A stretch of DNA of 64,000 bases. Origin: Candidatus Micrarchaeota archaeon (lineage in GTDB: Archaea; Micrarchaeota; Micrarchaeia; Micrarchaeales; CABMGC01). Each line of letters starts with the position of its first letter. The stretch's first letter is position 1. Made by a program: the position numbers and the translations under genes. Of this stretch, positions 17,859 to 46,568 are shown piece after piece. The notes below the pieces were generated by a model. That model saw only the letters and a program-made list of their open reading frames with translations, was not told the origin of the DNA and searched no databases. The stretch spans positions 79,342 through 143,341 of the forward strand of contig JAJZYR010000001.1 of NCBI GenBank assembly GCA_021797995.1. Direction: 5' to 3'.

Positions 17859-18042
17859 CTGTTTAGTATTTTGAAGTTACTATTGGCAATTTATTACAGT
17901 ATAAGAGGCCATTGGCCTTTATGGCTCCTCGCACTGGCGATGCCAGAGCAAGAGGAGCGGCAGCCCTAGCCACCGTGAGGGCTTTTACCTGAGTACCTGC
18001 ATCATCGAGTAGATATAATATTTATTGTCCTCCAATGCATGC

Positions 18043-18228
18043 ATGCGTGATATGATGGAGAAGGTAGTGTTTGAATTTACACAGAATGGCCCGGTCCTGG
18101 TCAAAAAAGACGGAAAGGTGGAATTTGCCTTGTGCAGATGCGGCCATTCGACTAAAAAGCCGTTCTGTAGTGGAGCACATGTGGATGCAGGATTCAAAGC
18201 CGACCGCAGTATGCTGGAGCTGAAATAG
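18043..18228 (+). CDS. CDGSH-type iron-sulfur domain protein (variant motif)
   Basis: CRCGHSTKKPFCSGAH matches C-x-C-x2-S-x3-P-x-C-[D>S]-G-A-H. ATG 18043 lies about 25 nt after gatataatattta. Confidence 0.6.
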   Translation: MRDMMEKVVFEFTQNGPVLVKKDGKVEFALCRCGHSTKKPFCSGAHVDAGFKADRSMLELK

Positions 18229-18320
18229 CGGGACCTCGTGATAAGGCCAGTGAGGCGCCGTAAAAAGCGTTTCGCTTTCGCCCCACACTATTGTACTACG
18301 CCAGACAACACAGAATATAG

Positions 18321-19466: not shown

Positions 19467-19575
19467 AATATCAATTTTGCATTACTATTCTATAAAACTT
19501 GCCTACTACGCTTCCAACTACGTCTGACCGATATGTGGTACTGTCATCTAGCTACTTATGAAACCGCTATTGAAT

Positions 19576-19591
19576 GTGGATGGACTCTGCG
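19576..19591. repeat. direct repeat copy of the tRNA-Ala(GGC) 3' end plus trailer (att-like)
   Basis: gtggatggactctgcg here matches gtggaatggactctgcg at 21226-21242. That is an 11-nt exact core plus 5 further nt with a 1-nt indel. The second copy is the last 11 nt of the tRNA plus its 3' trailer. Confidence 0.65.
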
Positions 19592-19672
19592 ATAGTCAGT
19601 CATTGAGTATGATGTACAAACACTATCACCTGATGATGTTTAACATCAAACACAGTTATTCGCAGTCGCTTA

Positions 19673-20560
19673 CTATTTCAGATATCTTCGATACTCTTTT
19701 ATATATCTTCTAAAGAACCACGCCACAAATATAGAATCAATTTTTTTGACCTGTGCCCTTTCCAAGGCATTATAATATCCTATCCTATTTTTGTAGGATA
19801 TATTGAGCATCGGATAACCAAGTCTGTTTAGAATAAAGTTCATAATGAGCCTTGATAATCTTCCATTTCCGTCTATAAACGGGTGTACTGTAACAAATTT
19901 TAAGTGTGCTAGTGCAGCCAACTCAACAGGATGCATTTTCATTCTGTTTTTATTGTACCAACTAAAGAAATCCTCAAGTAACGGCATGACTTCTACAGGA
20001 CTTGGAGGTATAAATTTGCTGCCATGTATCCAAACCTGCCTCGTTCGTATTTTTCCAGCTATATCCTTCTTTGTATTTTCAAAAAGAGTATGGTGCCATT
20101 CCAAGATGAGTTGCAGAGTCAGACCTTTTTTATATCTCAGCATATTATAAAAGATATTCGAATGCGCCTCGGCTTCTTTAGCATCTCTCGAAGGTTTATT
20201 TGAAGGTGTCACTCCATGCTGTAATAAATTAGCGGTTTCTTTTAGGGTTAGTGTTGAACCTTCTATTTTTTGAGTATCATAAGTAAACTTAATCATAAAT
20301 CCTTCAATTTCTTTGTCTTTTTCAGAGGGAGTTGCAGAACCGATGTCTTTTTTATAGGACGCCTTTATCTTATCCAATGATAAATACCACTTCTGAGTGT
20401 AAACCTGTGTGAGAAAATCGCTCTTTATTTTATCTAAATTCTTAGGTATACTACTCCCCAGATATTTCTCCTTCTTAATGACAGTTCCATTAAGCCTGAA
20501 AGAGTGTTCGATATAGTAGTACTTTTTATTACCGTATTTCCGTTCCCTTATATTTACCAT
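19673..20560 (-). CDS. Fic-domain protein (AMPylase family)
   Basis: HPFIDGNGRLSRL is the canonical HPFx(D/E)GNGR motif. An upstream TQKIEGS helix motif is present. ATG 20560 (MVNIRERKYG) lies about 25 nt after a minus-strand tttataaat TATA box. Confidence 0.85.
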   Translation of the reverse strand: MVNIRERKYGNKKYYYIEHSFRLNGTVIKKEKYLGSSIPKNLDKIKSDFLTQVYTQKWYLSLDKIKASYKKDIGSATPSEKDKEIEGFMIKFTYDTQKIEGSTLTLKETANLLQHGVTPSNKPSRDAKEAEAHSNIFYNMLRYKKGLTLQLILEWHHTLFENTKKDIAGKIRTRQVWIHGSKFIPPSPVEVMPLLEDFFSWYNKNRMKMHPVELAALAHLKFVTVHPFIDGNGRLSRLIMNFILNRLGYPMLNISYKNRIGYYNALERAQVKKIDSIFVAWFFRRYIKEYRRYLK

Positions 20561-20725
20561 AGTAATACTTGCCCCTACACATTTATAAATATTTGGTTTT
20601 TGATTGAAATGTAGGGGTAGATAGCTACTACTATGGGATTTGTATCCTGCCTCCTCGTAAACGTTAAATGGACTCAGCGTGGCTTCCAACAAAGTTGTAA
20701 GTTCCTCGTATATAGCTATATAACG

Positions 20726-21145
20726 CTATACGAGTATGGCTAAGATAATAGCAGGTACGATGACAAACCAGGCAAGTAAATACATCAGATTAAGCGGAAA
20801 GCTGCGTATATCTATCTTCTCTCCTAAGACGGTTATAAGCAAGTCCAAAATTATCGTAAATAGGAGAGAGGTGATACCAACTGGGAGAAGTTGGATAGCC
20901 GACAGGGACAAGTGCAATTCCGCTAGCACAACCTTGGTCGTTATGAAAAACGACACGAAGCTGCAAATCGGCACAGTAGCGATTGCAAGGGCTGAAGGAA
21001 GCCTCTTAACAATGGCAAGTGGGTGTTTATAGTCCATGCTGATTCTGAATAACTTGAAGTATATAAGGAAAAAGACAATGCCCAACAGCCATAGTCCGAT
21101 ATATCCTATTAATGGGATAAGGATAACGATCAGCTCGTTAGCCAT
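20726..21145 (-). CDS. small integral membrane protein, hypothetical
   Basis: 139 aa with 4 hydrophobic segments. AT-rich and co-oriented upstream of the Fic gene. Confidence 0.55.
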   Translation of the reverse strand: MANELIVILIPLIGYIGLWLLGIVFFLIYFKLFRISMDYKHPLAIVKRLPSALAIATVPICSFVSFFITTKVVLAELHLSLSAIQLLPVGITSLLFTIILDLLITVLGEKIDIRSFPLNLMYLLAWFVIVPAIILAILV

Positions 21146-21231
21146 GAACTTCGCCTACTTATTGTGACCTTGAGCAGTTATTATAATTATGCCTGGGGTG
21201 ATATGCACATGCCCACGAGGGACAAGTGGAA

Positions 21232-21303
21232 TGGACTCTGCGGGATTTGAACCCGCAACCTCCTGCATGCCATGCAGGCGCGCTACCATTGCGCTAAGAG
21301 CCC
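21232..21303 (-). tRNA. tRNA-Ala (anticodon GGC)
   Basis: 72-nt cloverleaf. Acceptor GGGCTCT/AGAGTCC with G3:U70. D arm GCGC-AATGGTA-GCGC. Anticodon arm CCTGC-ATGGCAT-GCAGG. T arm GCGGG-TTCAAAT-CCCGC. Discriminator A, no encoded CCA. Confidence 0.9.
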
Positions 21304-21641
21304 AGAATCTGCAGTTAGAGTTGTCTGATTTGACATGTGACATCCTCCCCGGGCTTTAGCCCGGGGCTTCCCATCGGACCAAGACTTCCCGATCCGAAGG
21401 TATGTTCTCGCTTCGACGGTCCCGCTTTCGCATCCGTTTCCGGGTGCAAAGAGGCAGGATCTCCACGAGCTTCAATTCCCGCATGCCCTGCGGTACTCTT
21501 GTGCAGTATATTCCTCGCAGCATTTATATCCCTGTCGATCCGGAGGCCGCACACCATGCAGGAGTACGTCCTCTCGCCGAGAGAGATGTCCCTGATTGCA
21601 CTGCACGCGCTGCACCTTCTTGTCGTATCCTTCGGTTCCAC
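21304..21641 (-). mobile_element. tnpB: IS200/IS605-family remnant: TnpB (OrfB) C-terminal fragment plus right-end hairpin
   Basis: The translated tail PKDTTRRCSACS...YSCMVCGLRIDRDINAARNIL carries a zinc ribbon and the RuvC-III DRDxNAAxNI motif. It continues into ...GSPGLKPGEDVT, which is encoded by the GC hairpin ccccgggc-ttta-gcccgggg (21347-21366). Only about 105 aa of a normally ~400-aa protein remain. Confidence 0.7.
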
Positions 21642-21851
21642 TGGGTCTATCCTTATCCCGACCTCCTCCCTGGCCTCTCTTACCGCAGCCGCGCTGATAG
21701 CCTCGCCTTTCTCTAAGTGGCCGGATGGCATAGAGTACCATCCATCCCTGTAACCGGTGCCTTTGCGCCTTATGAGAAGTATCTTCCCCTCCTTTCTGAG
21801 TAGGATGAATACGCCAATCCTGTGGCCGCTCCGTATCTCATGTCCAGGCAT
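21642..21851 (-). pseudogene. Nudix hydrolase, N-terminal ~70 aa, fused in frame to the TnpB fragment
   Basis: The complete Nudix box GHLEKGEAISAAAVREAREEVGI is followed within about 5 codons by TnpB sequence. The rest of the Nudix fold is missing. Confidence 0.65.
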
Positions 21852-35046: not shown

Positions 35047-36423
35047 CTAAATTTGCAGTTTCTTCATCAGTTCCGAATAGGCAGCCCCGGCATACTCCTT
35101 CGGAATAGAATTTACGAATAGCATCGCCTTTCCAAGGCGTATATCCTTGCGCGCCTTCCTTCCCTTCCTTATCATATCCCTGAAAGCCTCCTCCGCGCTT
35201 CCGTATCTGTTTTTCTCCAGGGCGTATAGCTCGGTGCCTTTTATCAGCGCCCCGATCGCCCTGCTGTGCCCTTTAATGAAATTGCCAGCAGCCTGGCGCA
35301 TAAAGACGCTAGGGCCCTTGAGCAGCCGCGTCTCTATCCTGGTGCCAGGAAGCGCGAAGAGGAGAAATCCGTAATGCCCCGAGATCCACTGTGCTGAGAG
35401 GAAAACGCCATAGCCATGCCTAGAGAGCGTATCCGCCATTATTCCAGAAGTCTTCCTCAGCTGCGGCCAGACGACATCCTCGCTCTTGTCCGGAACCCTT
35501 AACTTTACCATATAAAGCGAGAGGCCCGAATCCTTGGTGAACTTTCTCAATAGCACCCCGGCTGCAGGAGAGGGAAATCCCTTTCCGAAGAACAGCTCTG
35601 CGCTCGGGTTATCAACGAATCTCCTTGCGACCATCACAAACCGGCTGAGAGACTCTGGAGAGACTCCTGCGCCGACATTCCTATTGCTGTCGACGGGATC
35701 TATGACTATAAACTTAGAATTGAATCTCTTTACAAGCTGCTGGTCACCCTGCCTGCCTCTTGTCTTGGGGTCAAGTATTACAGGCAGCTCAAACGTCGCC
35801 GCACTTTCCAGGAGCTTGATGAGGGATCCAAACTGGAGTATCAGGAGTTCGCATAGATACCCGGGAAATCCGCCAACCCTTACCTCTGCACCATAGATGT
35901 TATGCGCCTTCAGCAGATACTTCAGGAGCCTCGTCTCGTCCCTCTGCCTCTCGGTCATGTTGGAATTTATGAAATCAGTATGCAGAGGGGTCCTGTCTAC
36001 CGTCGTGCCCATTTCCTCAATGTTGTCTATCTTAAGTGCGGGGACAAGATCTATCCTGACTCCAAGCCCTTCAAGGTAAACGCGTATGTATGGGTGCTCC
36101 GCATATTTTATCTCGAACCTGTCGCGTTTTCCGCTTGCAAGCTTCTTCCCGTAGGCTAAGCCCTTCCTGACAAGCTCCTCCTTCCCGGTTTTCTTATGGA
36201 AGAGCATAAAGATGTCGATGTCCGCATCCCCCTTCAGGTTAGTCCCCCTGGCCACGGAACCAACGACCCTCAGTTCAACCCCCTTCTCGACAATTCCTGC
36301 CAGCCTCGATGTCACCGTATTTATATTGGCTATAGTGGCATTGGTTTCGGCCTGGCTGGGCTTTATGTCGGCAAGCACCCTGTGGAAGATCATTTCTGCC
36401 TTCCCTGCCTTTCGTGCTTCCAT
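35047..36423 (-). CDS. cca: CCA-adding enzyme (archaeal class I tRNA nucleotidyltransferase)
   Basis: GSVARGTNLKGDADIDIFMLF nucleotidyltransferase motif. Length and order are typical of archaeal Cca. An alternative start at MIFHRV is possible. Confidence 0.8.
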   Translation of the reverse strand: MEARKAGKAEMIFHRVLADIKPSQAETNATIANINTVTSRLAGIVEKGVELRVVGSVARGTNLKGDADIDIFMLFHKKTGKEELVRKGLAYGKKLASGKRDRFEIKYAEHPYIRVYLEGLGVRIDLVPALKIDNIEEMGTTVDRTPLHTDFINSNMTERQRDETRLLKYLLKAHNIYGAEVRVGGFPGYLCELLILQFGSLIKLLESAATFELPVILDPKTRGRQGDQQLVKRFNSKFIVIDPVDSNRNVGAGVSPESLSRFVMVARRFVDNPSAELFFGKGFPSPAAGVLLRKFTKDSGLSLYMVKLRVPDKSEDVVWPQLRKTSGIMADTLSRHGYGVFLSAQWISGHYGFLLFALPGTRIETRLLKGPSVFMRQAAGNFIKGHSRAIGALIKGTELYALEKNRYGSAEEAFRDMIRKGRKARKDIRLGKAMLFVNSIPKEYAGAAYSELMKKLQI

Positions 36424-36482: not shown

Positions 36483-36584
36483 GGGCTCGTAGCGCAGCAG
36501 TAGCGCGCATCGTTCGCAAGAAGCCTCTAAAAAAGGCTTCATCGAAAGACGATGAGGTCGCGGGTGCGATTCCCGCCGAGTCCA
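36483..36584 (+). tRNA. tRNA-Ala (anticodon CGC) with 30-nt intron
   Basis: Acceptor GGGCTCG/CGAGTCC with G3:U70. D arm GCGC-AGCAGTA-GCGC. Anticodon stem CATCG/CGATG with loop TTCGCA|A. Intron 36519-36548 sits at position 37/38 and contains the hairpin GAAGCCT-N7-AGGCTTC. T arm GCGGG-TGCGATT-CCCGC has a non-canonical loop. Discriminator A. Confidence 0.8.
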
Positions 36585-36675
36585 CATTTTTACTGCGGTA
36601 TTTGTTCTCTAGTAATGAACAATAGTGTTCATTGGTAATGAAAACATTTAAATATCTTAGCCTCTAAATGAAATC

Positions 36676-37896
36676 ATGATACTGAAGGAAACACTTAGGC
36701 AGATAGTCAAAGCTCAGAGGAAAGACTTAGAATCGTTCAGCTACGGAGTAGAAAGGGAAGAATTAGGTGAGATAAAACTCAATATGCATTACGCATTGAT
36801 ACTATCAGGTATAAGACGATGTGGTAAGAGTACTCTACTTCACCAATTGCTTAAAAAACTTCCAAATTTCTATTATCTAAACTTTGAGGACACACGGCTA
36901 GACAGCTTTCAAGTTGAGGATTTCGAAAAGTTAGATGAAATCTTCAAGGAAGATTACAGTGAATCCGAATACTATCTTTTCGATGAAATACAGAATATTG
37001 ATAAATGGGAGCTTTTTGTAAGATCCAGACTTGACAAACAGAAGAAATTTATTATTACAGGCTCTAACGCTTCGCTTTTAAGTAAGGAGCTTGGTACTAG
37101 ACTCACAGGCAGGCACATCAACATGGAACTGTTTCCATTCTCCTTTATGGAGTCGCTTTCTATGACTAAGGTAAAGGCAAGCGCAACTTCATTCTCAGAA
37201 TACTTAAGAAGTGGAGGGTTTCCAGAATATCTGAGATATAAAAAACAAGAAATACTGCGCGAGTTATTAACAGACATAATACAAAGGGATATTGTAGTAA
37301 GGCACAAATTGCGCGATTCTAAAACAGTGAAGACACTTGCGTTATATCTGCTTAGTAACACGGGCAACGAGTTTTCGTATAATAACCTTAAGAAGATGTT
37401 CAATCTGGGGTCAGTGAATACCGTAATAGCATTTGTTTCTTATTTTGAGGACAGCTACCTTCTATTTACTGTGCCAAAGTTTGATTACTCGCTTAAGAAA
37501 CAGATAGTTAATGCAAAAAAAATATATTCTATAGATAATGGTCTTTCGACCTCAAATTCGGCTTCGTTCTCTTCAGATTTAGGAAGAATGTTAGAGAATT
37601 CTGTATTCTTGCATCTTCGTAGGAGATATAAAGAAATATTCTACTTCAAAGGAAAAAGAGAATGCGATTTCTTAGTAAAGGAGCAAAACAAGATAAAAAT
37701 GGCAATACAGGTCTCGTATGAGCTAAACGAAGGAAATAAACAGAGAGAATTTGACGGACTTCTTGAAGCTATAAAAGAGTTTGATTTGGTAGAAGGATTA
37801 ATACTTACATTTGACCAAGAAGACAAATTTGAGATTGAGGGAAAACACATAATAGCAAAACCGGTTTGGAAATGGATGCTAGAAAGCAATTTGTAA
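36676..37896 (+). CDS. AAA+ ATPase, COG1373 type (AAA_14 + DUF4143), paralog 1
   Basis: GIRRCGKST Walker A, YYLFDEIQNIDKWE Walker B, ITGSNASLLSKELGTRLTGRH, C-terminal ECDF...IQV. AT-rich. TATA catttaaata lies about 25 nt upstream. Confidence 0.85.
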   Translation: MILKETLRQIVKAQRKDLESFSYGVEREELGEIKLNMHYALILSGIRRCGKSTLLHQLLKKLPNFYYLNFEDTRLDSFQVEDFEKLDEIFKEDYSESEYYLFDEIQNIDKWELFVRSRLDKQKKFIITGSNASLLSKELGTRLTGRHINMELFPFSFMESLSMTKVKASATSFSEYLRSGGFPEYLRYKKQEILRELLTDIIQRDIVVRHKLRDSKTVKTLALYLLSNTGNEFSYNNLKKMFNLGSVNTVIAFVSYFEDSYLLFTVPKFDYSLKKQIVNAKKIYSIDNGLSTSNSASFSSDLGRMLENSVFLHLRRRYKEIFYFKGKRECDFLVKEQNKIKMAIQVSYELNEGNKQREFDGLLEAIKEFDLVEGLILTFDQEDKFEIEGKHIIAKPVWKWMLESNL

Positions 37897-37995
37897 TGTA
37901 TGAAAGTGAAAAAGGAGGAACGAGATTAAAATTGTTTTATCTATGAGTCTGTGTTCAAAAGAAATATCTCCAATTTGGATTTTACCTAGTACACA

Positions 37996-38113
37996 AACCT
38001 TTTTGGAAAGGTTAATCGAAAACACTGGGTGCGAATACAGCCAGATTTGCACCGTGTCTGTTTATATTTCTAAATGCGGTATAATCTGTGTGCGAAGACA
38101 CAGATGTTCGCAT
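37996..38113 (+). repeat. conserved non-coding module R, copy 1
   Basis: Hairpin aaccttt-ttgg-aaaggtt (37996-38013). Hairpin 38023-38056. TATA tttatatt (38061-38068). gtgtgcgaa...ttcgcat hairpin. Homologous to 42857-43010 and 45542-45695. Confidence 0.8.
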
Positions 38114-38170
38114 TTCTGAAAATAAAATCTACGGTGGCTATATGGAAACGAAAGCTAGACGAAAAAGCTA

Positions 38171-38226
38171 CGACCCGCGTCCGCTTTGCAAGCGGAAGGT
38201 CGCTGGTGCGATCCACGCGGAGTCGA
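38171..38226 (+). pseudogene. tRNA-Ala(UGC)-like 3' fragment
   Basis: Anticodon arm TCCGC-TTTGCAA-GCGGA. Then AGGTC, an imperfect T arm with a TGCGATC loop, and GGAGTCG-A. There is no matching 5' acceptor strand or D arm. Confidence 0.6.
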
Positions 38227-38232
38227 TTCAAG

Positions 38233-39690
38233 CTACCTGTCCGGCTTCGTAGTGCCTGCGCCGTGAAGCTGTTGTACTCTGTCATCCTTCCCTCTTGCCA
38301 GCGATACTATCCCTGCAGCGACAAGTATGACTATCATTGCAACGAACGAGAACCGCATGCCCGTGATGAATGCGCTGGCAGTTGCCCCTGTCAGCTTTGC
38401 AGAGGTGCCTACGAAGATCTCAAACGCCTGCGCGCGCGGTATCGATGCAGCTGCTACCACGAAAACGACTATGAAGCTGCCCATCATGCCTATGGTAGAG
38501 AACATCCTGGACAATCCGGAAGCTATGCCGAACCTGCTCTGCTCTGCGTGCGCCATGATGGAGCTACTGTTTGCTGGCCAGAACATCGCGCCCCCTATAC
38601 CTGTAATCAGCGACCCTAGTATTACAAGGTAGACCGAGGAGTATGGATTCAGGAACATGTACACTATTATCCCAAGTATCTGGAGGGCTATGCCCAAGGT
38701 CGCCACAATCCTCGCGCCGTGCTTGTCCGAGATCCTGCCCATGTAAGGCGACAGCAGGCCGCTTACAACGTAGCCTGGCACAAGCAGGAGGGAAGCGAAG
38801 AGGGGTGTAAAGCCGAGGACCCCCTGAAGATACAGTATAAGCATGAAGACGACTCCCAGGAAGCCCAGGCCCTGAAGCATAGCAGCGAAAACTGAGTTCT
38901 TGAACACCCTGTTCGCGAACATGTCGAACGGTATCGTTGGGCTCTCAGATCTCCTCTCTATGAAGTAGAACGCTGCCAGGAGCAATACGCCTATGACCAC
39001 CATAACCGTGTTGAGTGCACCTGTGCCGGTTGAGGCATATCCTATGCCGCCGTACAGCAGCAGGGACAGGGCAACTGCCAACGTCACCATGCCCCCTATG
39101 TCCAGCTTGGCTGCGAACGTCTGCTTGTCGGATATGTACTTGACGCCCAATACCAATGCCACTATGCCTATTGGCACGTTTATGAAGAATATGTACTGCC
39201 AGCCTATGAAGGTTGTTATTATGCCGCCAAGTAGTATGCCTAGGAGCGCCCCTATATTGTATGCCATGGCGGTGAAGCCGAAAGCCCTTCCGATTCTGTG
39301 CCTTCCGAAGGTATCAGCTATTATTGCGCCGCTGGTTGCTGCGATCATCGCCCCTCCGAGCCCCTGCACTGCCCTAAATACGATAAGGAGAACGTCAGTA
39401 GGGGCTATGCCGCAAAGGAAAGAGGAAGCGGTAAACACGGCAAGCCCGGCTATGAAGATTTTGGCCCTGCCATATATGTCGCCCACCTTACCGAACTGTG
39501 TTGTGGCTACTGCACTGATGAGCATGTATATCAATATGACCCATATTATGGTAGTCAAGTTAGAATGAAGCGACGACACTATTGCAGGGAATGCCAACAG
39601 CACTATTGTTGAGTCTATGGCTGCCATCAGCACTGCTACGAGTATCACACCCAGTATTATGTCCTCGTGTACGTGTTTTGCAGCCAACAT
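38233..39690 (-). CDS. MFS transporter, DHA2 (EmrB/QacA-like, 14-TM) family
   Basis: 485 aa with about 14 hydrophobic segments. N-terminal LMAAIDSTIV and GKVGDIYGR motifs. Confidence 0.75.
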   Translation of the reverse strand: MLAAKHVHEDIILGVILVAVLMAAIDSTIVLLAFPAIVSSLHSNLTTIIWVILIYMLISAVATTQFGKVGDIYGRAKIFIAGLAVFTASSFLCGIAPTDVLLIVFRAVQGLGGAMIAATSGAIIADTFGRHRIGRAFGFTAMAYNIGALLGILLGGIITTFIGWQYIFFINVPIGIVALVLGVKYISDKQTFAAKLDIGGMVTLAVALSLLLYGGIGYASTGTGALNTVMVVIGVLLLAAFYFIERRSESPTIPFDMFANRVFKNSVFAAMLQGLGFLGVVFMLILYLQGVLGFTPLFASLLLVPGYVVSGLLSPYMGRISDKHGARIVATLGIALQILGIIVYMFLNPYSSVYLVILGSLITGIGGAMFWPANSSSIMAHAEQSRFGIASGLSRMFSTIGMMGSFIVVFVVAAASIPRAQAFEIFVGTSAKLTGATASAFITGMRFSFVAMIVILVAAGIVSLARGKDDRVQQLHGAGTTKPDR

Positions 39691-40022
39691 AGGAATCAGC
39701 GTATGATAACGGCATATCCACTGCCAATTACATACATGTAGCTGTTTTAACGGTCGAAGCTTAATAACCTTTATCAGTTACTTACGGAATACGCGTAACA
39801 ATATTCCACTATAAAAGATAAATTTACTTGCTTATAATGGCCCAATAAGGACGGCGTAAGCTTAAGGAAAGATTTCACTCCTTTTTCTTCATTGGTTATA
39901 TGTTTGGGGCCAGCTATGTGACATCCTCCGATGACTAAAGGTCGTTGGCTTCCCCTGCATTTGCAGGGTATGTTCTCAATTCCTCAAGCGGCTTTTCGAT
40001 TCCTGTTGAATCGCAGAGGCTA

Positions 40023-40655
40023 CTAATATGGGCTGGTGAGCTTGCCGGCGTCTGCAGATTCTTTGTGCCGCTTTATGAAATTCAGGACGACTGTAGCAGT
40101 ATGCTTGTCGTATCTCTCAAGGTATTTGTGGATCTTTTTTCTGCTTATCTTCTTTAGTAGCTCGCTGTAATCTTGAATCGGCAATTTCACCCTATAGTAG
40201 AACAGGTCTATAAGCGTCTTTTCTGGTTCAGATACAGGCACCTCCAGTGTCCCGTATTTGACTATGCCAAATCCGAAGAAATACTTTGCTGGCATGTGGT
40301 GGACGAAGACCGTTTCCTTTATATCGCCAAATATGTGTATCGAAGAGGCGCGGACCTTCCTGATGGTAATGATATCAGGCCTAGAGTTCTGTGTCCAAAG
40401 CTCCCTTATAGTTAGCGCGGACAGCAATCCATAGTAGAATGGACTGTATGCAAAGCCTGCCACCATGCTATCTTTTTTGAATGCATAGGCCCCTTTTCTA
40501 ACCGTATACAGCTTTCCGCTGCTCTTCATATACGCGATGATCCTTGTAAGGTTTGCCGTTTTCAGCTTTTTGTTTTTGAAGTATAGCTTAAGGTCCCTGC
40601 GCGTGAACACAGGGTAGTCTGAAAAATGATTAATTATGTCCTTTACTATTGTCAC
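40023..40655 (-). CDS. AbiEi-like antitoxin / COG5340-type wHTH regulator (tentative)
   Basis: 210 aa. The N-terminal pattern FTRRDL...L..L..SGKLYTVRKGAYAF resembles AbiEi wHTH domains. It overlaps the upstream nucleotidyltransferase gene by 26 nt. Confidence 0.5.
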   Translation of the reverse strand: MTIVKDIINHFSDYPVFTRRDLKLYFKNKKLKTANLTRIIAYMKSSGKLYTVRKGAYAFKKDSMVAGFAYSPFYYGLLSALTIRELWTQNSRPDIITIRKVRASSIHIFGDIKETVFVHHMPAKYFFGFGIVKYGTLEVPVSEPEKTLIDLFYYRVKLPIQDYSELLKKISRKKIHKYLERYDKHTATVVLNFIKRHKESADAGKLTSPY

Positions 40656-41328
40656 TCAACCACTTCTTTATCGTGTTCACCATCAGGTCGAATGTCGGCG
40701 GCAGGCCTGCGATTATCAGATGCCCTAAGCTGCCCATATTCGGCGGCGGATTTCCGTCTATTTTTCCAATTAATGCCTTTAGCCGTTTGACTGACGTTGC
40801 ATCAACCCTGTTGATCAGGGAAATCAGATAGTAAATATCATACAGATCCTGCACTTCAGTCTGCTTGAATCTCTCCACACTATTCAATTTATCTTCATAG
40901 GCGGCCATCTTTTCATTGAGCAGTTCCAATGGACTTAGAGATAGGACAACGATTTTGCTGCCGTCAATTTTCATGTAATCGAATTCGGTGCCCTTTTTGT
41001 ATTTGAAGTTGATGTCGATTTTCATCTTTGTGTTGGATTCTACCAAAAAGTGCATCGTGTCTGTTGCCTTTTCATATCCCTTTTCTTTCATCAGAAATCC
41101 TGAATCTTTCAAGAAATCTGAGAGCTCCTTGTAGTGCCGCATCTTTTCTTCGTTTGTCTTAGCATCGAGATAGAAGTCTATGTCTCTAGAGAACCTGTTT
41201 CCCCCATGGCATCTCCATATCGAAGTGCCGCCGTGAAACACCAGGCCGTTGTATCTGCTATACAGGAGTTCTACTAGAACGTCCTCCAGTTTTGCTTTCT
41301 CCATCTGCGCCTGATCTCTTATATCCAT
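40630..41328 (-). CDS. nucleotidyltransferase AbiEii/AbiGii toxin family (DUF1814)
   Basis: FHGGTSIWRCHGGNRFSRDIDFYL matches the GGTAL...R.S.DIDF N-terminal motif of the family. 232 aa. Confidence 0.65.
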   Translation of the reverse strand: MDIRDQAQMEKAKLEDVLVELLYSRYNGLVFHGGTSIWRCHGGNRFSRDIDFYLDAKTNEEKMRHYKELSDFLKDSGFLMKEKGYEKATDTMHFLVESNTKMKIDINFKYKKGTEFDYMKIDGSKIVVLSLSPLELLNEKMAAYEDKLNSVERFKQTEVQDLYDIYYLISLINRVDATSVKRLKALIGKIDGNPPPNMGSLGHLIIAGLPPTFDLMVNTIKKWLSDNSKGHN

Positions 41329-41402
41329 AGAACCATAACTACATTTTATTACAATTTTATGTAATAATATGCACTTATATATTTAAATACCTTGCTGTTG
41401 AA

Positions 41403-41499
41403 GGCAGTGTGGCGGTAGTGCTCATCGTTCGCAAGAAGCCTCTAAAAAAGGCTTCATCGAAAGAGGATGAGTTCGCGGGTTCGAATCCCGCGGAGTCTA
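41403..41499 (+). pseudogene. tRNA-Ala(CGC)-derived pseudo-tRNA retaining the intron
   Basis: A 42-nt run (41423-41464) is identical to tRNA 36508-36549, covering the anticodon stem-loop and the whole intron. The T arm is canonical (GCGGG-TTCGAAT-CCCGC). The 5' acceptor strand and D stem do not pair, and the anticodon stem has one mismatch. Confidence 0.7.
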
Positions 41500-41577
41500 C
41501 TTACTCTGATTAGGTCGTTTGGATATTATATAGTATAGTAACAAAGATTTAAATAACATTATATAGTATACTATATC

Positions 41578-42852
41578 ATGGATAAAGAAACGCTCAGGCT
41601 CGTAATAGTTGACCAGAGAAAGAGCCTCGAGGAAAAGCTTAGAGACAAAAACATAATCGTTCGGGATGCAAGTAAGTCGATAGTGCTGAAAGCCCCGACC
41701 GCCTTCATAGTCCTCGGGGTCAGGCGCTCTGGCAAGTCTACGCTTTCGGAGCAGTTGTTTATTGATGACAAATTTGGTTATATAAATTTTGATGACGAGA
41801 GGCTCCTAGGCGCAACTAGAGATGACCTTAATATCATACTTCAGATATTCTATGAGTTGTACGGATCCGATCTTGGCAATATAATACTCGATGAGATACA
41901 ATTAGTACCTGGTTGGGAACCGTTTGTGAGCAGGCTTAGGGATACAAAGAAGGTCATAGTCACTGGGTCTAGCTCTAAACTGCTTAGTGGCGAGCTTTCG
42001 ACCAGGCTGACAGGCAGGCACATCGACCTCCTGTTGTTTCCGTTCAGCTTTAATGAGTTTCTTACGTATAAACACTGGAACATACCTAAGGCTTTCTCTA
42101 CTACCGATAGGGCAGAGGTTGTAAGATTACTCGATGAGTATATAAGCTCTGGGGGATTCCCGGAGCAGTTTACCTTGGGCAGGCAGATAATCAGGAACAT
42201 TTACAATGATATAATAACAAAAGACATCGTAATAAGGCATAAGATAAAGTACATAGACGACTTAAGGCAGGCAGCGCGGTTTTTGGTATCAAACAGCTCA
42301 AAAGAATTTACATACTCTTCTCTTAAAGGTGTGACTGGGGCCAAGAGCATTATAACCCTATCGAATTGGGTGAGGTACCTTGAAGAGGCATATCTTATCT
42401 TCAAAATAGAGCGGTTTTCATATAAACTGAAGCAAACAATCCTCGCGCCTAAAAAGATATACTGCGTCGATGTTGGTATAATAAACGGGATAAGCCCGGA
42501 GCCGACGGGCAACAAAGGCAGATTGATGGAGAATACTGTTGCAATGGAACTGATAAAGGGCAGCAAAAATGTCGGATTTGAGGTATTTTACTGGAAGGAC
42601 CATCAAGGGAGGGAGGTAGATTTTATTATTAAGGACGACAGAAAGGTCGCTAAGCTAATCCAGGCTACTTATGCAACAAGCCGTGAAGCAATTGAAGATA
42701 GGGAAATAAAGTCGCTAGTAATAGCTTCTAACGAACTGAGATGCAATAATCTCTTCATAGTCACGTGGGATTATGAGGGCAGTATCGTGATAGAAGGAAA
42801 GAAAATAGCACTTGTTCCATTATGGAAGTGGCTGCTGAATAAAGAATTATGA
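41578..42852 (+). CDS. AAA+ ATPase, COG1373 type (AAA_14 + DUF4143), paralog 2
   Basis: GVRRSGKST, NIILDEIQLVPGWE, VTGSSSKLLSGELSTRLTGRH, C-terminal REVDF...IQA. TATA atttaaataac lies about 25 nt upstream. Confidence 0.85.
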   Translation: MDKETLRLVIVDQRKSLEEKLRDKNIIVRDASKSIVLKAPTAFIVLGVRRSGKSTLSEQLFIDDKFGYINFDDERLLGATRDDLNIILQIFYELYGSDLGNIILDEIQLVPGWEPFVSRLRDTKKVIVTGSSSKLLSGELSTRLTGRHIDLLLFPFSFNEFLTYKHWNIPKAFSTTDRAEVVRLLDEYISSGGFPEQFTLGRQIIRNIYNDIITKDIVIRHKIKYIDDLRQAARFLVSNSSKEFTYSSLKGVTGAKSIITLSNWVRYLEEAYLIFKIERFSYKLKQTILAPKKIYCVDVGIINGISPEPTGNKGRLMENTVAMELIKGSKNVGFEVFYWKDHQGREVDFIIKDDRKVAKLIQATYATSREAIEDREIKSLVIASNELRCNNLFIVTWDYEGSIVIEGKKIALVPLWKWLLNKEL

Positions 42853-42856
42853 CAAT

Positions 42857-43010
42857 GCTTTACGAAAAGCTTTACCAAAGAGTCTGGGTGCGTAACCTTT
42901 TTGAAAAGGTTGAACCAGAACACTGGGTGCAGTTTTGTCGTTATTTGCACCGTGTCTCTTTATATTTCTGAAATGCCATAGTCTGTGTGCGGATACACAG
43001 ATGCGCGCAT
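42857..43010 (+). repeat. conserved non-coding module R, copy 2
   Basis: Starts 5 nt after the ATPase-2 stop. Hairpins at 42894-42911 and 42921-42954. TATA at 42959-42966. By hand alignment there are 3 mismatches in about 117 nt versus copy 3. Confidence 0.85.
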
Positions 43011-43061
43011 TTTGAAATATGATCTACTGTGGCTTGAATGGCTAGAAGAAATGACGGTAAA

Positions 43062-43119
43062 AGCTTAGAGCGCGTCGTTCGCAACGATGAGATTGCGAGT
43101 TCAAATCCTGCCGAGTCCA
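43062..43119 (+). pseudogene. intron-less tRNA-Ala(CGC)-derived 3' fragment
   Basis: CGTCG-TTCGCAA-CGATG anticodon arm joined exactly at the exon-exon junction of the 36483 tRNA. T arm GCGAG-TTCAAAT-CCTGC. CGAGTCC-A. The 5' acceptor strand and most of the D arm are absent. Confidence 0.65.
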
Positions 43120-43230
43120 TTTTATGTTTACGAGTGAAGCAGGTGCGATGGACTTGTCTTTAGTCTTTGGTAGAAATAGATGTTCTATATTCTAGAATAT
43201 CCAGAAGATTTATATATGTATATCATCACA

Positions 43231-43248
43231 TATATCACTAGTGATATA
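43231..43248. promoter_or_regulatory. perfect 18-bp palindrome, candidate PadR operator
   Basis: tatatcact|agtgatata lies between the TATA-like gatttatatatg (43207-43218) and ATG 43249. Confidence 0.5.
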
Positions 43249-43479
43249 ATGAGAAACGTAGAAAACGTAGAGAAAGAAGACTGTGGATGCAGCTGCAGAT
43301 GCGGAGGTGGAAGCAGAGGAATGCGCAGGCATATGGGCTTCGGTGATATGGACTTGACAAATGACGAAACAGCTGAACGTCTGAGATACTACAAAGATGA
43401 CCTCACGGAAGAAATAAAGCTCATAGATAAACGGATAGCGGATCTCAAGGCAGAAGCCACAAGGAAAGGCAGCAAATAG
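43249..43479 (+). CDS. small Cys/Gly/Arg-rich plus coiled-coil protein (DUF5320-like, tentative)
   Basis: MRNVENVEKEDCGCSCRCGGGSRGMRRHMGFG followed by a heptad-like tail (LTEEIKLIDKRIADLKAEA). ATG 43249 lies directly after an 18-bp palindrome. Its stop overlaps the PadR start. Confidence 0.55.
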   Translation: MRNVENVEKEDCGCSCRCGGGSRGMRRHMGFGDMDLTNDETAERLRYYKDDLTEEIKLIDKRIADLKAEATRKGSK

Positions 43480-43859
43480 TGCAGGCTATGCCTATAAATT
43501 CAGGGTACTGCAACTGCGGTCCGTTTAGGGTGAGCGTGATCCCCCACGGGCTTCTCAAGCCGTATATTCTCAGGCTGATATCAGAGAGGCCTATGTACGG
43601 CTTTGAGATAATGGAGCAAATATTCGAGAAGACAGGCGGCATGTGGCGGCCCGGTCCTGCAGCCACGTATACTACGCTTGAGTGGTTGGAGCGGAATGGA
43701 TATATAAAATCGCTGAATGCAGTGCAGAGGTCCGAAAAGCAGAGGAAACAGTATAAGATAACTGAAAAAGGCCTCACTGCGCTCACAGACTATGCCGAAA
43801 CGTCAAAAATGATAGCGAACCGCATGAAAAGGTTCGGATTGCTGTATGGTGGCCTTTAA
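43479..43859 (+). CDS. PadR-family transcriptional regulator
   Basis: LLKPYILRLISERPMYGFEIMEQI...GPAATYTTLEWLERNGYI is a PadR wHTH. The start is either GTG 43479 (TAGTG overlap) or ATG 43488. Confidence 0.8.
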   Translation: MQAMPINSGYCNCGPFRVSVIPHGLLKPYILRLISERPMYGFEIMEQIFEKTGGMWRPGPAATYTTLEWLERNGYIKSLNAVQRSEKQRKQYKITEKGLTALTDYAETSKMIANRMKRFGLLYGGL

Positions 43860-44223
43860 TGATCGTTATCCCAATTACTACAAAATATATACTGATGATA
43901 GTATAACGGCAGTCAGATTTGCTGTAGCAGTTTAAAGTCAAAATCTCTTACTTCATCTACCCCGCGTACTACTGACGGTTGATGTTCTTTATAGTCAACT
44001 GCCAATAATTCATCCAGCATTTTACTGCCTAAAAGACCAAATTTTACCTGGGGATACGCGTATAACAAATTCCTGCCTTCCACGTAATCGACAATATACT
44101 AATGCTTATCTTACAGAACAGCACAAAAGGTGCAGAGGAGCAGAGTAATGATCAGCCGTCTTTCATTTACGTACAGTATACTAAACGTAAAGCATATAAA
44201 CATGTATAACATACTATACAGAT

Positions 44224-45522
44224 ATGGCTAGCGTTGATGACTTTAAGTATGTGCTTACCCTCTGGAAAGAGATGGAGCTACCAGAAGTCATAGACAGGAA
44301 GATTACTTTAGATTTAGATGCAGACAAAATAATAGTCATTGCTGGTGTAAGACGCTCTGGTAAAACGAGTTTAATGTTTCAGCACATTAAAGAGCTAATG
44401 AGAAGAAAGGTGGGAAAGGACAATATTATTTATGTTAATTTTGAGAATGAGCGCCTAATAGCTACTAAAGCAACAGACATGGATAATCTCATGGTTGCGC
44501 ATTCGCAAATATTCACTCCTGTAGAAGGAATTGTGTATTTGTTCTTGGATGAGATCCAGAACGTAGAGAACTGGGATAAATGGATAAGGAAGATATATGA
44601 CACCAAGAAGTATAGAATTATAATAACCGGATCGTCATCGCAATTACTTAGCAGCGAGATAGCTACGGCGCTTGCAGGCAGGAACCTTTCTTATACTGTT
44701 TATCCATTCTCTTTTAGCGAGATACTGAAATCGAAGGGTATAACCACCGAAATTAGTAGCATAAAATTTTCTTCAAAGAAAGGCATTGTACTGAAAGCGC
44801 TAGATGAATTTCTCGAATATGGCTCTTTTCCAGAGGTCATACTTTCAAATGATGCTACAAGAAAAATGGATCTTTTATCAGCGTACTTTGATGCAATATT
44901 CTTTAGGGACATAATAAAGCGATATAACCTGAGGGAAATGGGTGCATTAAACATTTTCCTTAAGATACTTGCTAGTAACTATTCGACTTATTTCAGCTCA
45001 ACAAAAGCCCAGAATTATTTCAATAGTATGGATTTTAAGATTAGCAGGGTTACAATTCTTAACTTTTTAGAATACTCTAAATCTGTATTCTTTGCTGAAA
45101 CCTTGGAGCAATACTTAAAAAGTCCAAGAAAGCGATTTGCTAGACAGATAAAGAGTTATATTGTTGACATTGGGCTATCAAGATTGTTTACAGAGATAGA
45201 TAAAGGTAGGGCACTTGAAAATGCGGTGTTTATTGAGCTGCTTAGAAGGAGAAAGGCACCAGATAATATCTATTATCTGAAATTGAAATCAGGAAAGGAG
45301 ATTGACTTTATTATAGGTTGGAAACCTACTAAACTAATACAGGTATGCTATAAATTTTCTAGCAACGATGTAAAAAAAAGAGAAACTCTGGCACTAGTTG
45401 AAGCTGCAAAAACACTTAGACTTAAAGAAGGGACCATAATTACTTATGATTATAGCGGCAGTGAGGTTATAAATGGAATAAAGATATTACACACACCCTT
45501 CTGGGAATGGGCCCTTACGTAG
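44224..45522 (+). CDS. AAA+ ATPase, COG1373 type (AAA_14 + DUF4143), paralog 3
   Basis: GVRRSGKTS, YLFLDEIQNVENWD, ITGSSSQLLSSEIATALAGRN, C-terminal KEIDF...IQV. TATA gcatataaac lies about 25 nt upstream. Confidence 0.85.
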   Translation: MASVDDFKYVLTLWKEMELPEVIDRKITLDLDADKIIVIAGVRRSGKTSLMFQHIKELMRRKVGKDNIIYVNFENERLIATKATDMDNLMVAHSQIFTPVEGIVYLFLDEIQNVENWDKWIRKIYDTKKYRIIITGSSSQLLSSEIATALAGRNLSYTVYPFSFSEILKSKGITTEISSIKFSSKKGIVLKALDEFLEYGSFPEVILSNDATRKMDLLSAYFDAIFFRDIIKRYNLREMGALNIFLKILASNYSTYFSSTKAQNYFNSMDFKISRVTILNFLEYSKSVFFAETLEQYLKSPRKRFARQIKSYIVDIGLSRLFTEIDKGRALENAVFIELLRRRKAPDNIYYLKLKSGKEIDFIIGWKPTKLIQVCYKFSSNDVKKRETLALVEAAKTLRLKEGTIITYDYSGSEVINGIKILHTPFWEWALT

Positions 45523-45541
45523 TAACGAGCAACTTACAAGA

Positions 45542-45695
45542 CCTTTTTACGAAAAGCTTTACCAAAGAGTATGGGTGCGTAACCTTTTTGAAAAGGTTGA
45601 ACCAGAACACTGGGTGCAGTTTTGTCGTTATTTGCACCGTGTCTGTTTATATTTCTAAATGCGGTATAATCCGTGTGCGAATCGGATGTTCGCAT
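45542..45695 (+). repeat. conserved non-coding module R, copy 3
   Basis: Hairpins at 45581-45598 and 45608-45641. TATA at 45646-45653. gtgtgcgaa-tcggatg-ttcgcat hairpin. Confidence 0.85.
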
Positions 45696-45757
45696 CCATC
45701 CAATGGCTGAAGTGCGTGGACTCTCTGCTATTCATTTTGTAAGACTGTAGGCGCGTG

Positions 45758-46423
45758 TTACCTTGATATTACGAGCCCGAAATGCCAATGCCCGGGCTTG
45801 AATCTCTTCTTGATACTGAATCCAGGGAACCATGCAAGATACTCCTCCTCGGACATCCGCAGGTTATCTGGCGGGCCTGAATGCTGCTTGTCGCGCATGC
45901 CGGCACCTTTTCTCCAGTCAACGATTATTATACGCCCTCCAGGTTTAAGTATCCTTATTACTTCTCCAGCAGCAGCGCCCTTCCTGTCCATATCGTGGAA
46001 TGAATTCGCCATGAAAACTGCGTCTGCAGATGAGTCGGGCAGGGAGATCCTTGAAGCATCCTCCTTCAGGAACCTTACATTTTCTCCATGGACCGTCTTG
46101 CGCGCCGCAGATATCATGGCCTTGCTGCTGTCTATGCAGTAGAGCCTTGATGCGAATGGTTTCAGCTTTTTGGCATAGAACCCAGGGCCACAGCCTATAT
46201 CCGCTATAACCTGCTTCTCAGGCCCGAAGATGTCCTTGAGGAAGGCTGTATTCTCGAACTTTTCTCTGCCATTAAGCAGGCGCTGTGCTGCGGATTTGTC
46301 CCATGAGTGGTGATGCGCTTCCATTATTACACGTTTACTGGGAGACTGCCGAACAAACGATCTCCCATAGGGAGTCTGGCTTGCTATGCGCCTGCCGGAT
46401 GCACATTTGCCTGTATTCTCCAC
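45758..46423 (-). CDS. class I SAM-dependent methyltransferase (Methyltransf_11-like)
   Basis: VIADIGCGPGFYA motif I and IIIVDW post-motif. The track start is GTG 46423, with tctatataac about 25 nt upstream. An internal ATG at 46324 (MEAHHHSWDK) is an alternative start. Confidence 0.75.
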   Translation of the reverse strand: MENTGKCASGRRIASQTPYGRSFVRQSPSKRVIMEAHHHSWDKSAAQRLLNGREKFENTAFLKDIFGPEKQVIADIGCGPGFYAKKLKPFASRLYCIDSSKAMISAARKTVHGENVRFLKEDASRISLPDSSADAVFMANSFHDMDRKGAAAGEVIRILKPGGRIIIVDWRKGAGMRDKQHSGPPDNLRMSEEEYLAWFPGFSIKKRFKPGHWHFGLVISR

Positions 46424-46503
46424 GCCAGACCTCTGTTGTCAGTTATATAGAATGGCCGAGAAGCCTTAAATATCTTTAAATTAGACTGTTCTATCGGGTT
46501 CTT

Positions 46504-46568
46504 GGCCCAGTAGTAGAACGATTCCATTCGCAACGGGGAGGCCGCTGGCATGATTCCAGCAGAGTCGG
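46504..46568 (+). pseudogene. degenerate intron-less tRNA-Ala(CGC)-like fragment
   Basis: ATTCGCAA loop context. Perfect T stem GCTGG-CATGATT-CCAGC. AGAGTCG-G. Anticodon stem and acceptor stem cannot form. A TATA-like ctttaaatta lies upstream. Confidence 0.5.

Follow-up and report, generated by a model that had tools for sequence, protein, structure and literature searches.

At the attachment (att) sites of integrative and conjugative elements (ICEs) as well as of integrative mobilizable elements (IMEs) in Firmicutes, elements pile up by tandem accretion, and among them stand cis-mobilizable elements (CIMEs), which are bounded by att sites, lack a recombinase and are thought to be mobilised in trans. 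In Sulfolobus, the SSV-type integrase gene, as described by She and colleagues in 2001, is said to be partitioned, with its N-terminal part, int(N), abutting one half of a transfer RNA (tRNA) gene. The tycheposon islands of Prochlorococcus are anchored at tRNA genes and are built by repeated integration (10.1101/2020.12.28.424599), and fragments of tRNA genes have been recognised as scars of integration (10.1101/2022.07.05.498093). The locus described here belongs to a 64-kb stretch of DNA from a Candidatus Micrarchaeota archaeon (contig JAJZYR010000001.1), which is termed the window as a whole and to which all feature coordinates and strands refer. It harbors three genes for COG1373-type ATPases, each of which is trailed on the same strand by a homologous non-coding block (R1, R2 and R3, collectively R). 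On a balance that tips modestly in its favour, R is read here as the arm of an attachment site, or a junction module, that belongs to small integrative cassettes directed at tRNA-Ala in Micrarchaeota.

The R unit and its tRNA-Ala island

The three blocks were found behind the three ATPase genes exactly where the original prediction, made from the letters of the window, had put them. ATPase1 (36676-37896, plus strand, 36% GC), ATPase2 (41578-42852, plus strand) and ATPase3 (44224-45522, plus strand, 36% GC) all have Pfam matches to AAA_14 (PF13173) and DUF4143 (PF13635), and a hidden Markov model (HMM) of the three R copies detects exactly three copies in the window (nhmmer, E = 1e-53 to 3.5e-39). 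Diverged R copies were collected from related Micrarchaeota contigs, labelled L0xx with letters for separate R matches (L012a, L012b, L016u), by sampling graded homologs of ATPase2 together with their contigs, by scanning metagenomes of the Joint Genome Institute (JGI) with the pattern of the third hairpin, which contributed five additional copies, and by look-ups of two other proteins, which contributed further ones.

R is the inner part of a larger unit of ~300 nt that is built around tRNA-Ala sequence. The consensus of this unit, built from 13-17 copies, runs from a box A through two T-rich hairpins, a bulged hairpin, a hairpin of ~65 nt and a spacer of ~60 nt into a 5'-truncated tRNA-Ala copy. 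Box A (consensus CCTTTTTACGAAAAGCTTTACCAAAAAGYCTGGGTGCG) is the decayed 3' half of a tRNA-Ala. Hairpin hp1 has the consensus AACCTTTTTGGAAAGGTT and was judged by per-copy folds instead of pair counts, because its MAFFT columns were out of register, while hp2, GGTGCGGTT...AATCGCACC, is set between bulged ACAC/GTGT flanks. A TATA-like block leads from hp2 to the inner hairpin ATCTGTGT...ACACAGAT, behind which the conserved spacer GAAAATAAAATCTACGGTGGCTAGAATGAAACAAAAGCTAGACGARAAAGCTA is located. The tRNA-Ala copy extends from the D stem to the 3' end (tRNA positions 9-73), with a shortened D loop and without the 5' acceptor strand, and is succeeded by the trailer TTTT..TTTACGAGGAAG.AGGGTAYGAATCC, which also follows the intact tRNA-Ala gene in L043. 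The likeness of the unit's edges to a tRNA 3' half reached p <= 0.006 for three trailers and for box A of L029, and p = 0.09 for box A of R3 taken alone; R is thus bracketed on both sides by tRNA-Ala-derived sequence.

In the window, all three units lie on the plus strand. The R1 unit (37996-38226, 126 bits) has no box A and is constructed of hp1 (37996-38013), hp2 (38022-38057), the long hairpin (38061-38126, with its TATA-like arm at 38061-38068 and an inner stem of 38084-38091 with 38098-38105), a spacer to 38165 and, as its end, a decayed tRNA-Ala(UGC)-like copy (38166-38226). The R2 unit (42857-43119) contains box A (42857-42893), hp1 (42894-42911), hp2 (~42919-42954), the long hairpin (42960-43022) and the TATA-like arm (42959-42966), followed by the spacer, an intron-less tRNA-Ala(CGC) copy (43062-43119; Rfam tRNA positions 9-63, 21.9 bits) and a tRNA-derived trailer to ~43160. 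The R3 unit (45542-45698), with box A, hp1 (45581-45598), hp2 (45607-45642) and the TATA-like arm (45646-45653), is cut after the inner hairpin and has neither spacer nor tRNA piece. As had been noticed before, R1 carries the 3' two-thirds of the block, and its 14-nt loop differs from that of R2 and R3 with the stem kept; the homology of R1 and R2 extends ~110 nt past the ends originally assigned to them, through the spacer into the partial tRNA-Ala copy. The T stems of the tRNA copies of R1 and R2 contain mismatches, and the tRNA copies of L029 and L030 match Rfam tRNA positions 9-63 at 27.6-28.6 bits. A functional, split or permuted tRNA was considered and rejected, as only positions 9-63 align, the score stays below the gathering score and the 5' acceptor strand occurs nowhere in the unit.

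The 9-mer CTGGGTGCG occurs twice around hp1 in direct orientation, once within box A and once within the 5' arm of hp2 (42885-42893 and 42924-42932; 45572-45580 and 45610-45618), and resembles the tRNA T arm (GCGGGTGCGAA). L019a (L019:5296-5310) possesses a single copy of this 9-mer and no hp1; hp1 may have come in as a small insertion that duplicated its target, or else L019a may have lost it by a deletion between the repeats.

The linkage to tRNA-Ala is maintained beyond the window. All R matches elsewhere with an intact 3' part enter a tRNA copy (L019a, L016u, L028-L032, L012b, L041-L045 and L047), three matches (L012a, L013b and L019b) show no continuation into one, and the copies on other contigs with enough flank carry or adjoin tRNA-Ala pieces. 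Among the three options originally offered for R, namely a structured RNA, an outward-firing promoter cassette and the recombination end of a cassette, the last fits best, in that reasonably complete units all end in a 5'-truncated tRNA-Ala copy.

The units reside in an island of small low-GC cassettes (36483-46568) that lies downstream of tRNA-Ala(CGC) and whose cassettes are separated by tRNA-Ala debris, an assignment drawn from the tRNA-Ala pieces, the foreign composition and the gene content. Its left anchor is the intact tRNA-Ala(CGC) gene (36483-36584, plus strand; 52.9 bits with the Rfam tRNA model), which bears a 33-nt intron right after the anticodon loop, was missed by ARAGORN and adjoins the gene of the CCA-adding enzyme (35047-36423, minus strand). 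Intron-less orthologs of this tRNA gene adjoin the CCA-enzyme gene in L019 (2388-2459) and L043 (4326-4397). Directly left of the ATPase2 cassette, a pseudo-copy without approximately the first 14 nt and with the same 33-nt intron (41412-41500, plus strand) is 90% identical to 36497-36585 (blastn, 93% over 75 nt). Since the intron is present in the window's tRNA gene and in the pseudo-copy and absent from the orthologs of the two relatives, the intron-bearing 3' part may have come with an integrating element. The left junction of the ATPase3 cassette (44063-44146, plus strand) joins a remnant shared with L012 to an end of another kind, termed S type, which closes in a decayed tRNA 3' end; it aligns locally to L012:960-1149 and L016:5035-5130 (p <= 0.003 against shuffles). 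The tRNA-derived piece furthest out is a decayed full-length tRNA-Ala(CGC)-like pseudogene (46496-46568, plus strand), recognised by an nhmmer match to the unit's tRNA part via L002 (E = 8.6e-07) and reaching only 13.5 bits over Rfam tRNA positions 1-71, and it is likely the far end of the island.

The GC content of the cassettes is 35-44%, against 51-58% for the host background. Partial tRNA-Ala copies bound the inserts and an intact tRNA gene stands at one end, as befits att remnants; moreover, the inserts are compositionally foreign and differ between relatives at the same anchor (L019, L043 and L045), as befits a genomic island.

Across 185,579 species genomes, genuine matches to an exact 17-nt R pattern occurred only in the window's own species (Candidatus Micrarchaeota LSA5.bin112); three bacterial and three viral-contig matches to this pattern lie in unrelated, apparently coding sequence and are due to chance. 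Two further scans of viral contigs yielded nothing relevant, the unit HMM, 335 positions long and applied to every locus collected, matched none of the seven viral-contig loci (L033-L039) picked up with an A-rich spacer pattern, and R had no match in PLSDB plasmids or INPHARED phages. A miniature inverted-repeat transposable element (MITE) or the end of an insertion sequence was rejected as well: terminal inverted repeats are missing and the hairpins are internal only, and the three copies of the window all sit in the tRNA-Ala island, with no scatter over unrelated loci. Several metagenome contigs (L001, L004, L028 and L032) start or stop at or near R units or ATPase cassettes, which fits assembly breaks at a multi-copy repeat, so that the copy number per genome may be underestimated.

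R copies evolve in concert and apart from their cargo

R2 and R3 are 97% identical over 114 nt, in an alignment that spans ~155 nt and begins right behind the stop codons, whereas the three ATPases share pairwise only 34-42% protein identity and 58-64% global nucleotide identity, the latter being about background. The near-identity of the two blocks behind diverged genes and the break of similarity at the stop codons, both read by hand from the sequence, are thereby borne out. In addition, R1 and R3 have an exact 32-mer, TTTGCACCGTGTCTGTTTATATTTCTAAATGC, in common, which was matched in none of 100 shuffles. The claim that R is better conserved than the genes it trails holds against the paralogous ATPases and fails against an ortholog: ATPase2 and the ATPase of L012 share 89% nucleotide identity in their genes, and the R units that trail them only 67%. 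R3 proved to be a mosaic of R2 and R1, since hp1 and hp2 are identical to R2 at 61 of 61 positions, R1 differing at 15, while the TATA block is identical to R1 at 18 of 18 positions and the part beyond this block is also closer to R1. The mosaic and the lower identity of R than of the genes in the ortholog pair therefore indicate that the likeness of R within one genome reflects shared origin and recombination, in line with the gene conversion that had been suggested as one option. R copies evolve in concert with each other, not with the genes they follow.

R had also been presented as a module of COG1373 ATPases, a view that has to be abandoned, since it follows other genes or none and close relatives of the ATPases have other right ends. 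In L031 the gene ahead of the unit is an ATPase_2 (PF01637) gene, in L029 it encodes a protein of unknown family, and in L030 it is a short open reading frame (ORF) truncated by the contig end, which has no Pfam hit and whose C-terminus looks by eye like that of a restriction-modification methylase; in L012b and L041/L045 no gene on the same strand lies upstream. ATPases 78-79% identical to ATPase2 have no R downstream, or have it upstream instead: the ATPase of L016 (79%) is preceded by the 3' part of R with its tRNA copy, and its right end is of S type, which is not R and closes in CCGCCGAGTCCA, the final 12 nt of the tRNA. A third type of right end, termed Q, terminates toxin-antitoxin (TA) cassettes in L041 and L012. 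The frame of remnant, S-type end, ATPase and R is occupied in the window by ATPase3 and in L012 by a gene of the ATPase2 type, and the two proteins are only ~34% identical. Swapped ATPases in one frame and the varied neighbours of R therefore reveal that cargo and junctions have been exchanged independently; R is no accessory of the COG1373 ATPases and is decoupled from the cargo.

Proposed integration at tRNA-Ala and rival readings of R

The same tRNA gene serves as a hot spot in relatives. L019 and L043 carry the CCA-enzyme gene and an intact intron-less tRNA-Ala(CGC) gene arranged as in the window, followed by other cassettes, with a peptidase, an ATPase and Fic in one of the two arrays and DUF4258/DUF2283, ORF112 and a PIN pair in the other; each cassette is then succeeded by a copy of the tRNA 3' end and a trailer. 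In L043 (4398-4520, 5425-5460 and 6250-6380), and also in L041, the trailers of the intact tRNA and of the third cassette share ~120 nt (cacagaaccagatttctatctctgcgatttgataaaaa...), and the repeats that bound these TA cassettes thus far exceed the 12-nt tRNA end. L041/L045 harbor a cassette array as in L043 together with an element of at least 8 kb that encodes a Phage_integrase protein (50.6 bits), in L045 a tyrosine recombinase of 266 residues. This element lies directly to the left of a 22-nt copy of the tRNA 3' end at the place where L043 has the intact tRNA gene; the contig starts inside the element, and its left end and the expected intact tRNA therefore lie beyond what is seen there. Elements with a tyrosine recombinase are likely to integrate at this tRNA in these organisms.

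A hint at the position of the crossover is given by L016u, L028 and L032, which have the same sequence from the spacer to the anticodon loop (GGG..TC.C ACCCG) and differ in the 3' strand of the anticodon stem, where CGGAA corresponds to the tRNA of L019 and CGATG to that of the window. As these 3' strands differ and yet match genuine tRNAs, only 2-3 of the 5 stem pairs form, whereas the anticodon stem is fully paired in the R1 and R2 units of the window and in L029, L030 and L047. Moreover, both CGC-type and UGC-type 3' parts of tRNA-Ala occur behind R-type arms, which bespeaks recombination between the arm and the tRNA part. To judge from these stem strands, L016u, L028 and L032 are suggestive of hybrid right attachment sites (attR) in which the crossover fell at the anticodon loop or close to it.

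A scheme can be proposed on this basis. Integrative cassettes or elements would enter by site-specific recombination with tRNA-Ala or with its resident partial copies, and every integration would leave behind part of a tRNA at the right junction. R would precede this partial tRNA in the R-type family and serve as the element-side arm, with the crossover at or near the anticodon loop in the three units mentioned. The recombinase, which is not encoded in the window, would be supplied in trans. The T-rich hairpins would probably terminate the transcription of the upstream gene, and R would be propagated together with its tRNA-Ala debris and homogenised by recombination between copies.

Several observations weigh against this scheme. 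The only integrase element found (L045) has no R and a shorter att, from the T loop to the 3' end; Pfam detected no integrase among 20 ORFs of the window and 20 ORFs of L028 and L032, and none was found beside any R unit; and neither an un-integrated (attP) form nor a clean empty site for an R-bounded cassette was recovered, the indirect hints of movement being the difference between L043 and L041 and the exchange of ATPases within one frame. The distal piece at 46496-46568 is a full-length pseudo-tRNA rather than a 3' fragment, contrary to what simple duplication of a 3' fragment predicts. The same duplicated box A recurs in all copies and implies that the whole 300-nt unit has been propagated as a block, with no renewal at each integration, contrary to what one would expect from a simple integration model. 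Finally, the hairpins have compensatory changes, for which an arm bound by proteins as duplex DNA would have no obvious need; the conserved set of hairpins, with whatever role the long one may play, remains the residual puzzle of the junction-module reading.

These hairpins are an argument for a second reading, in which R is a structured RNA of the plus strand or part of one, either an element in the 3' untranslated region of the upstream gene or a small RNA, with the bulged hairpin and the 65-nt hairpin as functional parts. In the diverged copies, 87% of the cells of hp2 and the inner hairpin are paired, as compared with 21-55% in slid controls, and 6 pairs are changed on both sides, a count attained by 2 of 500 shuffles. 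A structure-guided alignment gives 88-89% of cells paired (slid controls across both tests, 21-63%) and 7 pairs changed on both sides, attained by 11-12 of 500 shuffles, and in the middle helix 5 of 8 pairs are compensated, for instance AAATGC/GCATTT to AGACGC/GCGTCT in L047. The long hairpin is more stable than shuffled sequences (-23.2 kcal/mol, z = -5.05 in R1; -25.6 kcal/mol, z = -4.82 in R2), the plus strand is more stable than the minus strand by 2-4 kcal/mol owing to G-U pairs, and R lies on the coding strand directly behind genes. All the same, the sequences are few (13-14) and closely related, so that the shuffle tests overstate the structural support; the covariation term of RNAalifold is small (-0.74 kcal/mol), and the outer helix is devoid of covariation in any copy. 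Rfam, searched at the gathering threshold and at E <= 10 with the window and 14 related loci, returned tRNA matches only and no family for R, in agreement with the original remark that R resembles no described RNA family. Furthermore, the two T-run hairpins between gene and structure would tend to halt archaeal transcription, and the helices are truncated or broken in several copies (R3, L012a and L041). A structured RNA is accordingly held to be unlikely, albeit a rival to be taken seriously.

The T-rich hairpins and the TATA-like block have a different meaning if R is an insulator made of a terminator and a promoter, in which the hairpins would end the upstream gene and the TATA box would fire outward, from GTGTGCG ~24 nt downstream. 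Both T-rich hairpins have T5 runs, the TATA-like block is among the best-conserved parts of R, its distance to the purine-rich GTG/ATG suits an archaeal promoter, and in L012 a gene of the ORF112/134 family is joined to the spacer ATG behind R and has been called there. The motif and its spacing, on which the promoter had been predicted, thus stand, but the surroundings weaken the case for it. A purine-rich B recognition element (BRE) is absent from R, although the genome's own promoters have one (GAAAACA for ATPase1, GGAAAG for the tRNA); the TATA motif is the outer arm of the conserved ~65-nt hairpin and pairs with the beginning of the spacer, a site downstream of the proposed start. Most copies are followed merely by a tRNA remnant and a T run, the downstream genes carry TATA boxes of their own, and the ORF that begins at GTG is not conserved, being broken by frameshifts and stops among the copies. 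This insulator therefore appears improbable.

The same ORF would be the essence of R if it encoded a peptide, be it the N-terminal part of an SSV-type integrase that integration has cut in two or a small protein that starts at GTG or ATG. A start codon lies ~24 nt past the TATA-like motif, the frame stays open across the tRNA-like piece of R1 (ORF 38088-38252) and of L019a, and gene callers produce ORFs of 79 and 134 amino acids (aa) here. However, 1-nt indels and in-frame stops vary among the copies, and a phmmer search of 1.84 billion representative proteins with the 54-aa ORF returned no more than two 79-aa ORFs, both from other R units, and no long protein; these inter-copy frameshifts and stops and the lack of a long protein largely rule out an SSV-type int(N) at R. 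The homologs of the 134-aa ORF of L012, which starts inside R, begin downstream of R with unrelated N-termini, and this ORF was dismissed as a fusion or a calling artefact. A coding function of R is very hard to credit.

R might also act like an attC site in a cassette system of the integron type and recombine as single-stranded DNA in folded form. An imperfect, bulged palindrome trails each cassette ORF on the same strand, the sites within one genome are far more alike than the cassettes, the TA and defence-like cargo is of the sort reported for archaeal integron cassettes (PMC9668308), and an integrase is missing nearby, as in clusters of attC sites lacking integron integrases (CALINs). In spite of this, no pair of R''/R' cores (RYYYAAC ... 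GTTRRRY) was present in 17 units on either strand, IntI was not found, the cassettes have their own promoters and occur in both orientations, and the junctions plainly stem from tRNA, a sign of classical recombination targeted at tRNAs. We give this attC-like reading little credence.

A broader conjecture, itself rather improbable, envisages a cassette exchange at tRNA-Ala that is integron-like without being an integron, operating in Micrarchaeota and perhaps in neighbouring acidophilic archaea. Sites derived from tRNA would be the place where small self-promoted defence and TA cassettes, diverse COG1373 ATPase-nucleases among them, change places, and R, folded as DNA or RNA, would be recognised by a recombinase acting in trans. 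R would then be a dedicated, structured module of ~300 nt for recombination and insulation, or else a core of 250 nt within it would be a non-autonomous integrative element in miniature, aimed at the T loop of whichever tRNA-Ala copy is present.

Cargo genes and comparison with known systems

The cassettes of the island hold one to three genes with their own promoters and in both orientations. Besides the ATPases, whose genes have 36-43% GC, Pfam identified an MFS transporter, an AbiEi/AbiEii pair, a PadR regulator and a methyltransferase. In what PMC3424549 states on these families, DUF4143/COG1373 is placed among those with the PD-(D/E)XK nuclease fold. The promoter of ATPase2 contains a perfect 16-bp palindrome, ATATAGTATACTATAT (41561-41576), between the TATA box (tttaaata) and the ATG, with a related half-site upstream of the TATA box, and the motif is conserved in relatives (approximately L012:1130-1147, L016:3740-3757 and L019:3985-4000); it looks like an operator. 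Homologs of ATPase2 with 56-67% identity bear names from Thermoplasmatota, Parvarchaeum (ARMAN-4), Marsarchaeota, Aenigmatarchaeota and Micrarchaeota, a distribution that suggests transfer of these ATPase-nuclease genes across phyla among acidophilic archaea.

A small protein family of 112-134 aa with RKESYTH/RKASYTQ and no Pfam match is encoded at L012:2558-2962, L041:5001-5339 and L040:5001-5393. In L040 its gene stands directly after an intact tRNA-Ala(UGC), and in L012 it is joined to the R spacer at a CTACRA microhomology. Elsewhere in the window, a second low-GC island (18000-21304, 35-44% GC) lies beside tRNA-Ala(GGC) (21231-21304, minus strand) and contains a PglZ/phosphodiesterase-like gene, Fic and a small membrane ORF; the nearby ORF 21315-21851 appears by eye to join a NUDIX N-terminus to a TnpB-type zinc-ribbon C-terminus.

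In DPANN genomes, partial copies of tRNAs, as well as non-coding blocks conserved behind genes of the defence type, can be read as seams between cassettes and need not be new RNA genes. Where a non-coding block outdoes the neighbouring paralogs in conservation, concerted evolution can suffice and selection is not required. The locus also illustrates how ultra-small archaea with few recognisable mobile elements shuffle defence genes, through very small cassettes at a tRNA-Ala hot spot. If the hairpin-rich arm is active in recombination or as an RNA, it would help in the search for the recombinase, both as a sequence tag and as a substrate, and would give a handle on gene flow between Micrarchaeota, Parvarchaeota and Thermoplasmatota.

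The R unit shares two features with the right border of DNA captured in the SSV manner, namely a motif that resembles a promoter and a short ORF that runs on into a partial copy of a tRNA. Unlike in that system, the ORF is not conserved here, no int(C) follows the intact tRNA, and none of the 1.84 billion proteins searched continues the ORF. The cassettes resemble CIMEs in being att-bounded, in lacking a recombinase of their own and in accumulating in tandem at one site, but the system is archaeal, there is no context of conjugation, and mobility is presumed. The attC arrays of sedentary chromosomal integrons, for instance the Vibrio cholerae repeats (VCRs), and those of archaeal CALINs (PMC9668308) are similar in that homogeneous imperfect palindromes trail heterogeneous cassettes, that the cargo consists of TA and defence genes and that, in integron arrays and CALINs, the integrase is often missing from the contig; they are set apart from the present locus by its lack of R''/R' cores, its tRNA-derived junctions and the own promoters and mixed orientation of its cassettes.

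By this comparison, the closest known systems appear to be islands seeded at a tRNA and strewn with partial tRNAs, of which the tycheposon islands are an example. As in these, an intact tRNA stands at one end and scattered partial copies separate foreign blocks, older material is found further from the tRNA, many blocks lack an integrase, and the cargo is rich in defence and TA genes. In contrast with them, the host is a DPANN archaeon and the blocks are very small, with one to three genes in 0.7-1.6 kb; in one class of junction, two tRNA-derived pieces enclose R, a conserved arm of ~230 nt that is rich in hairpins, and this arm has been propagated as a block together with its tRNA debris.

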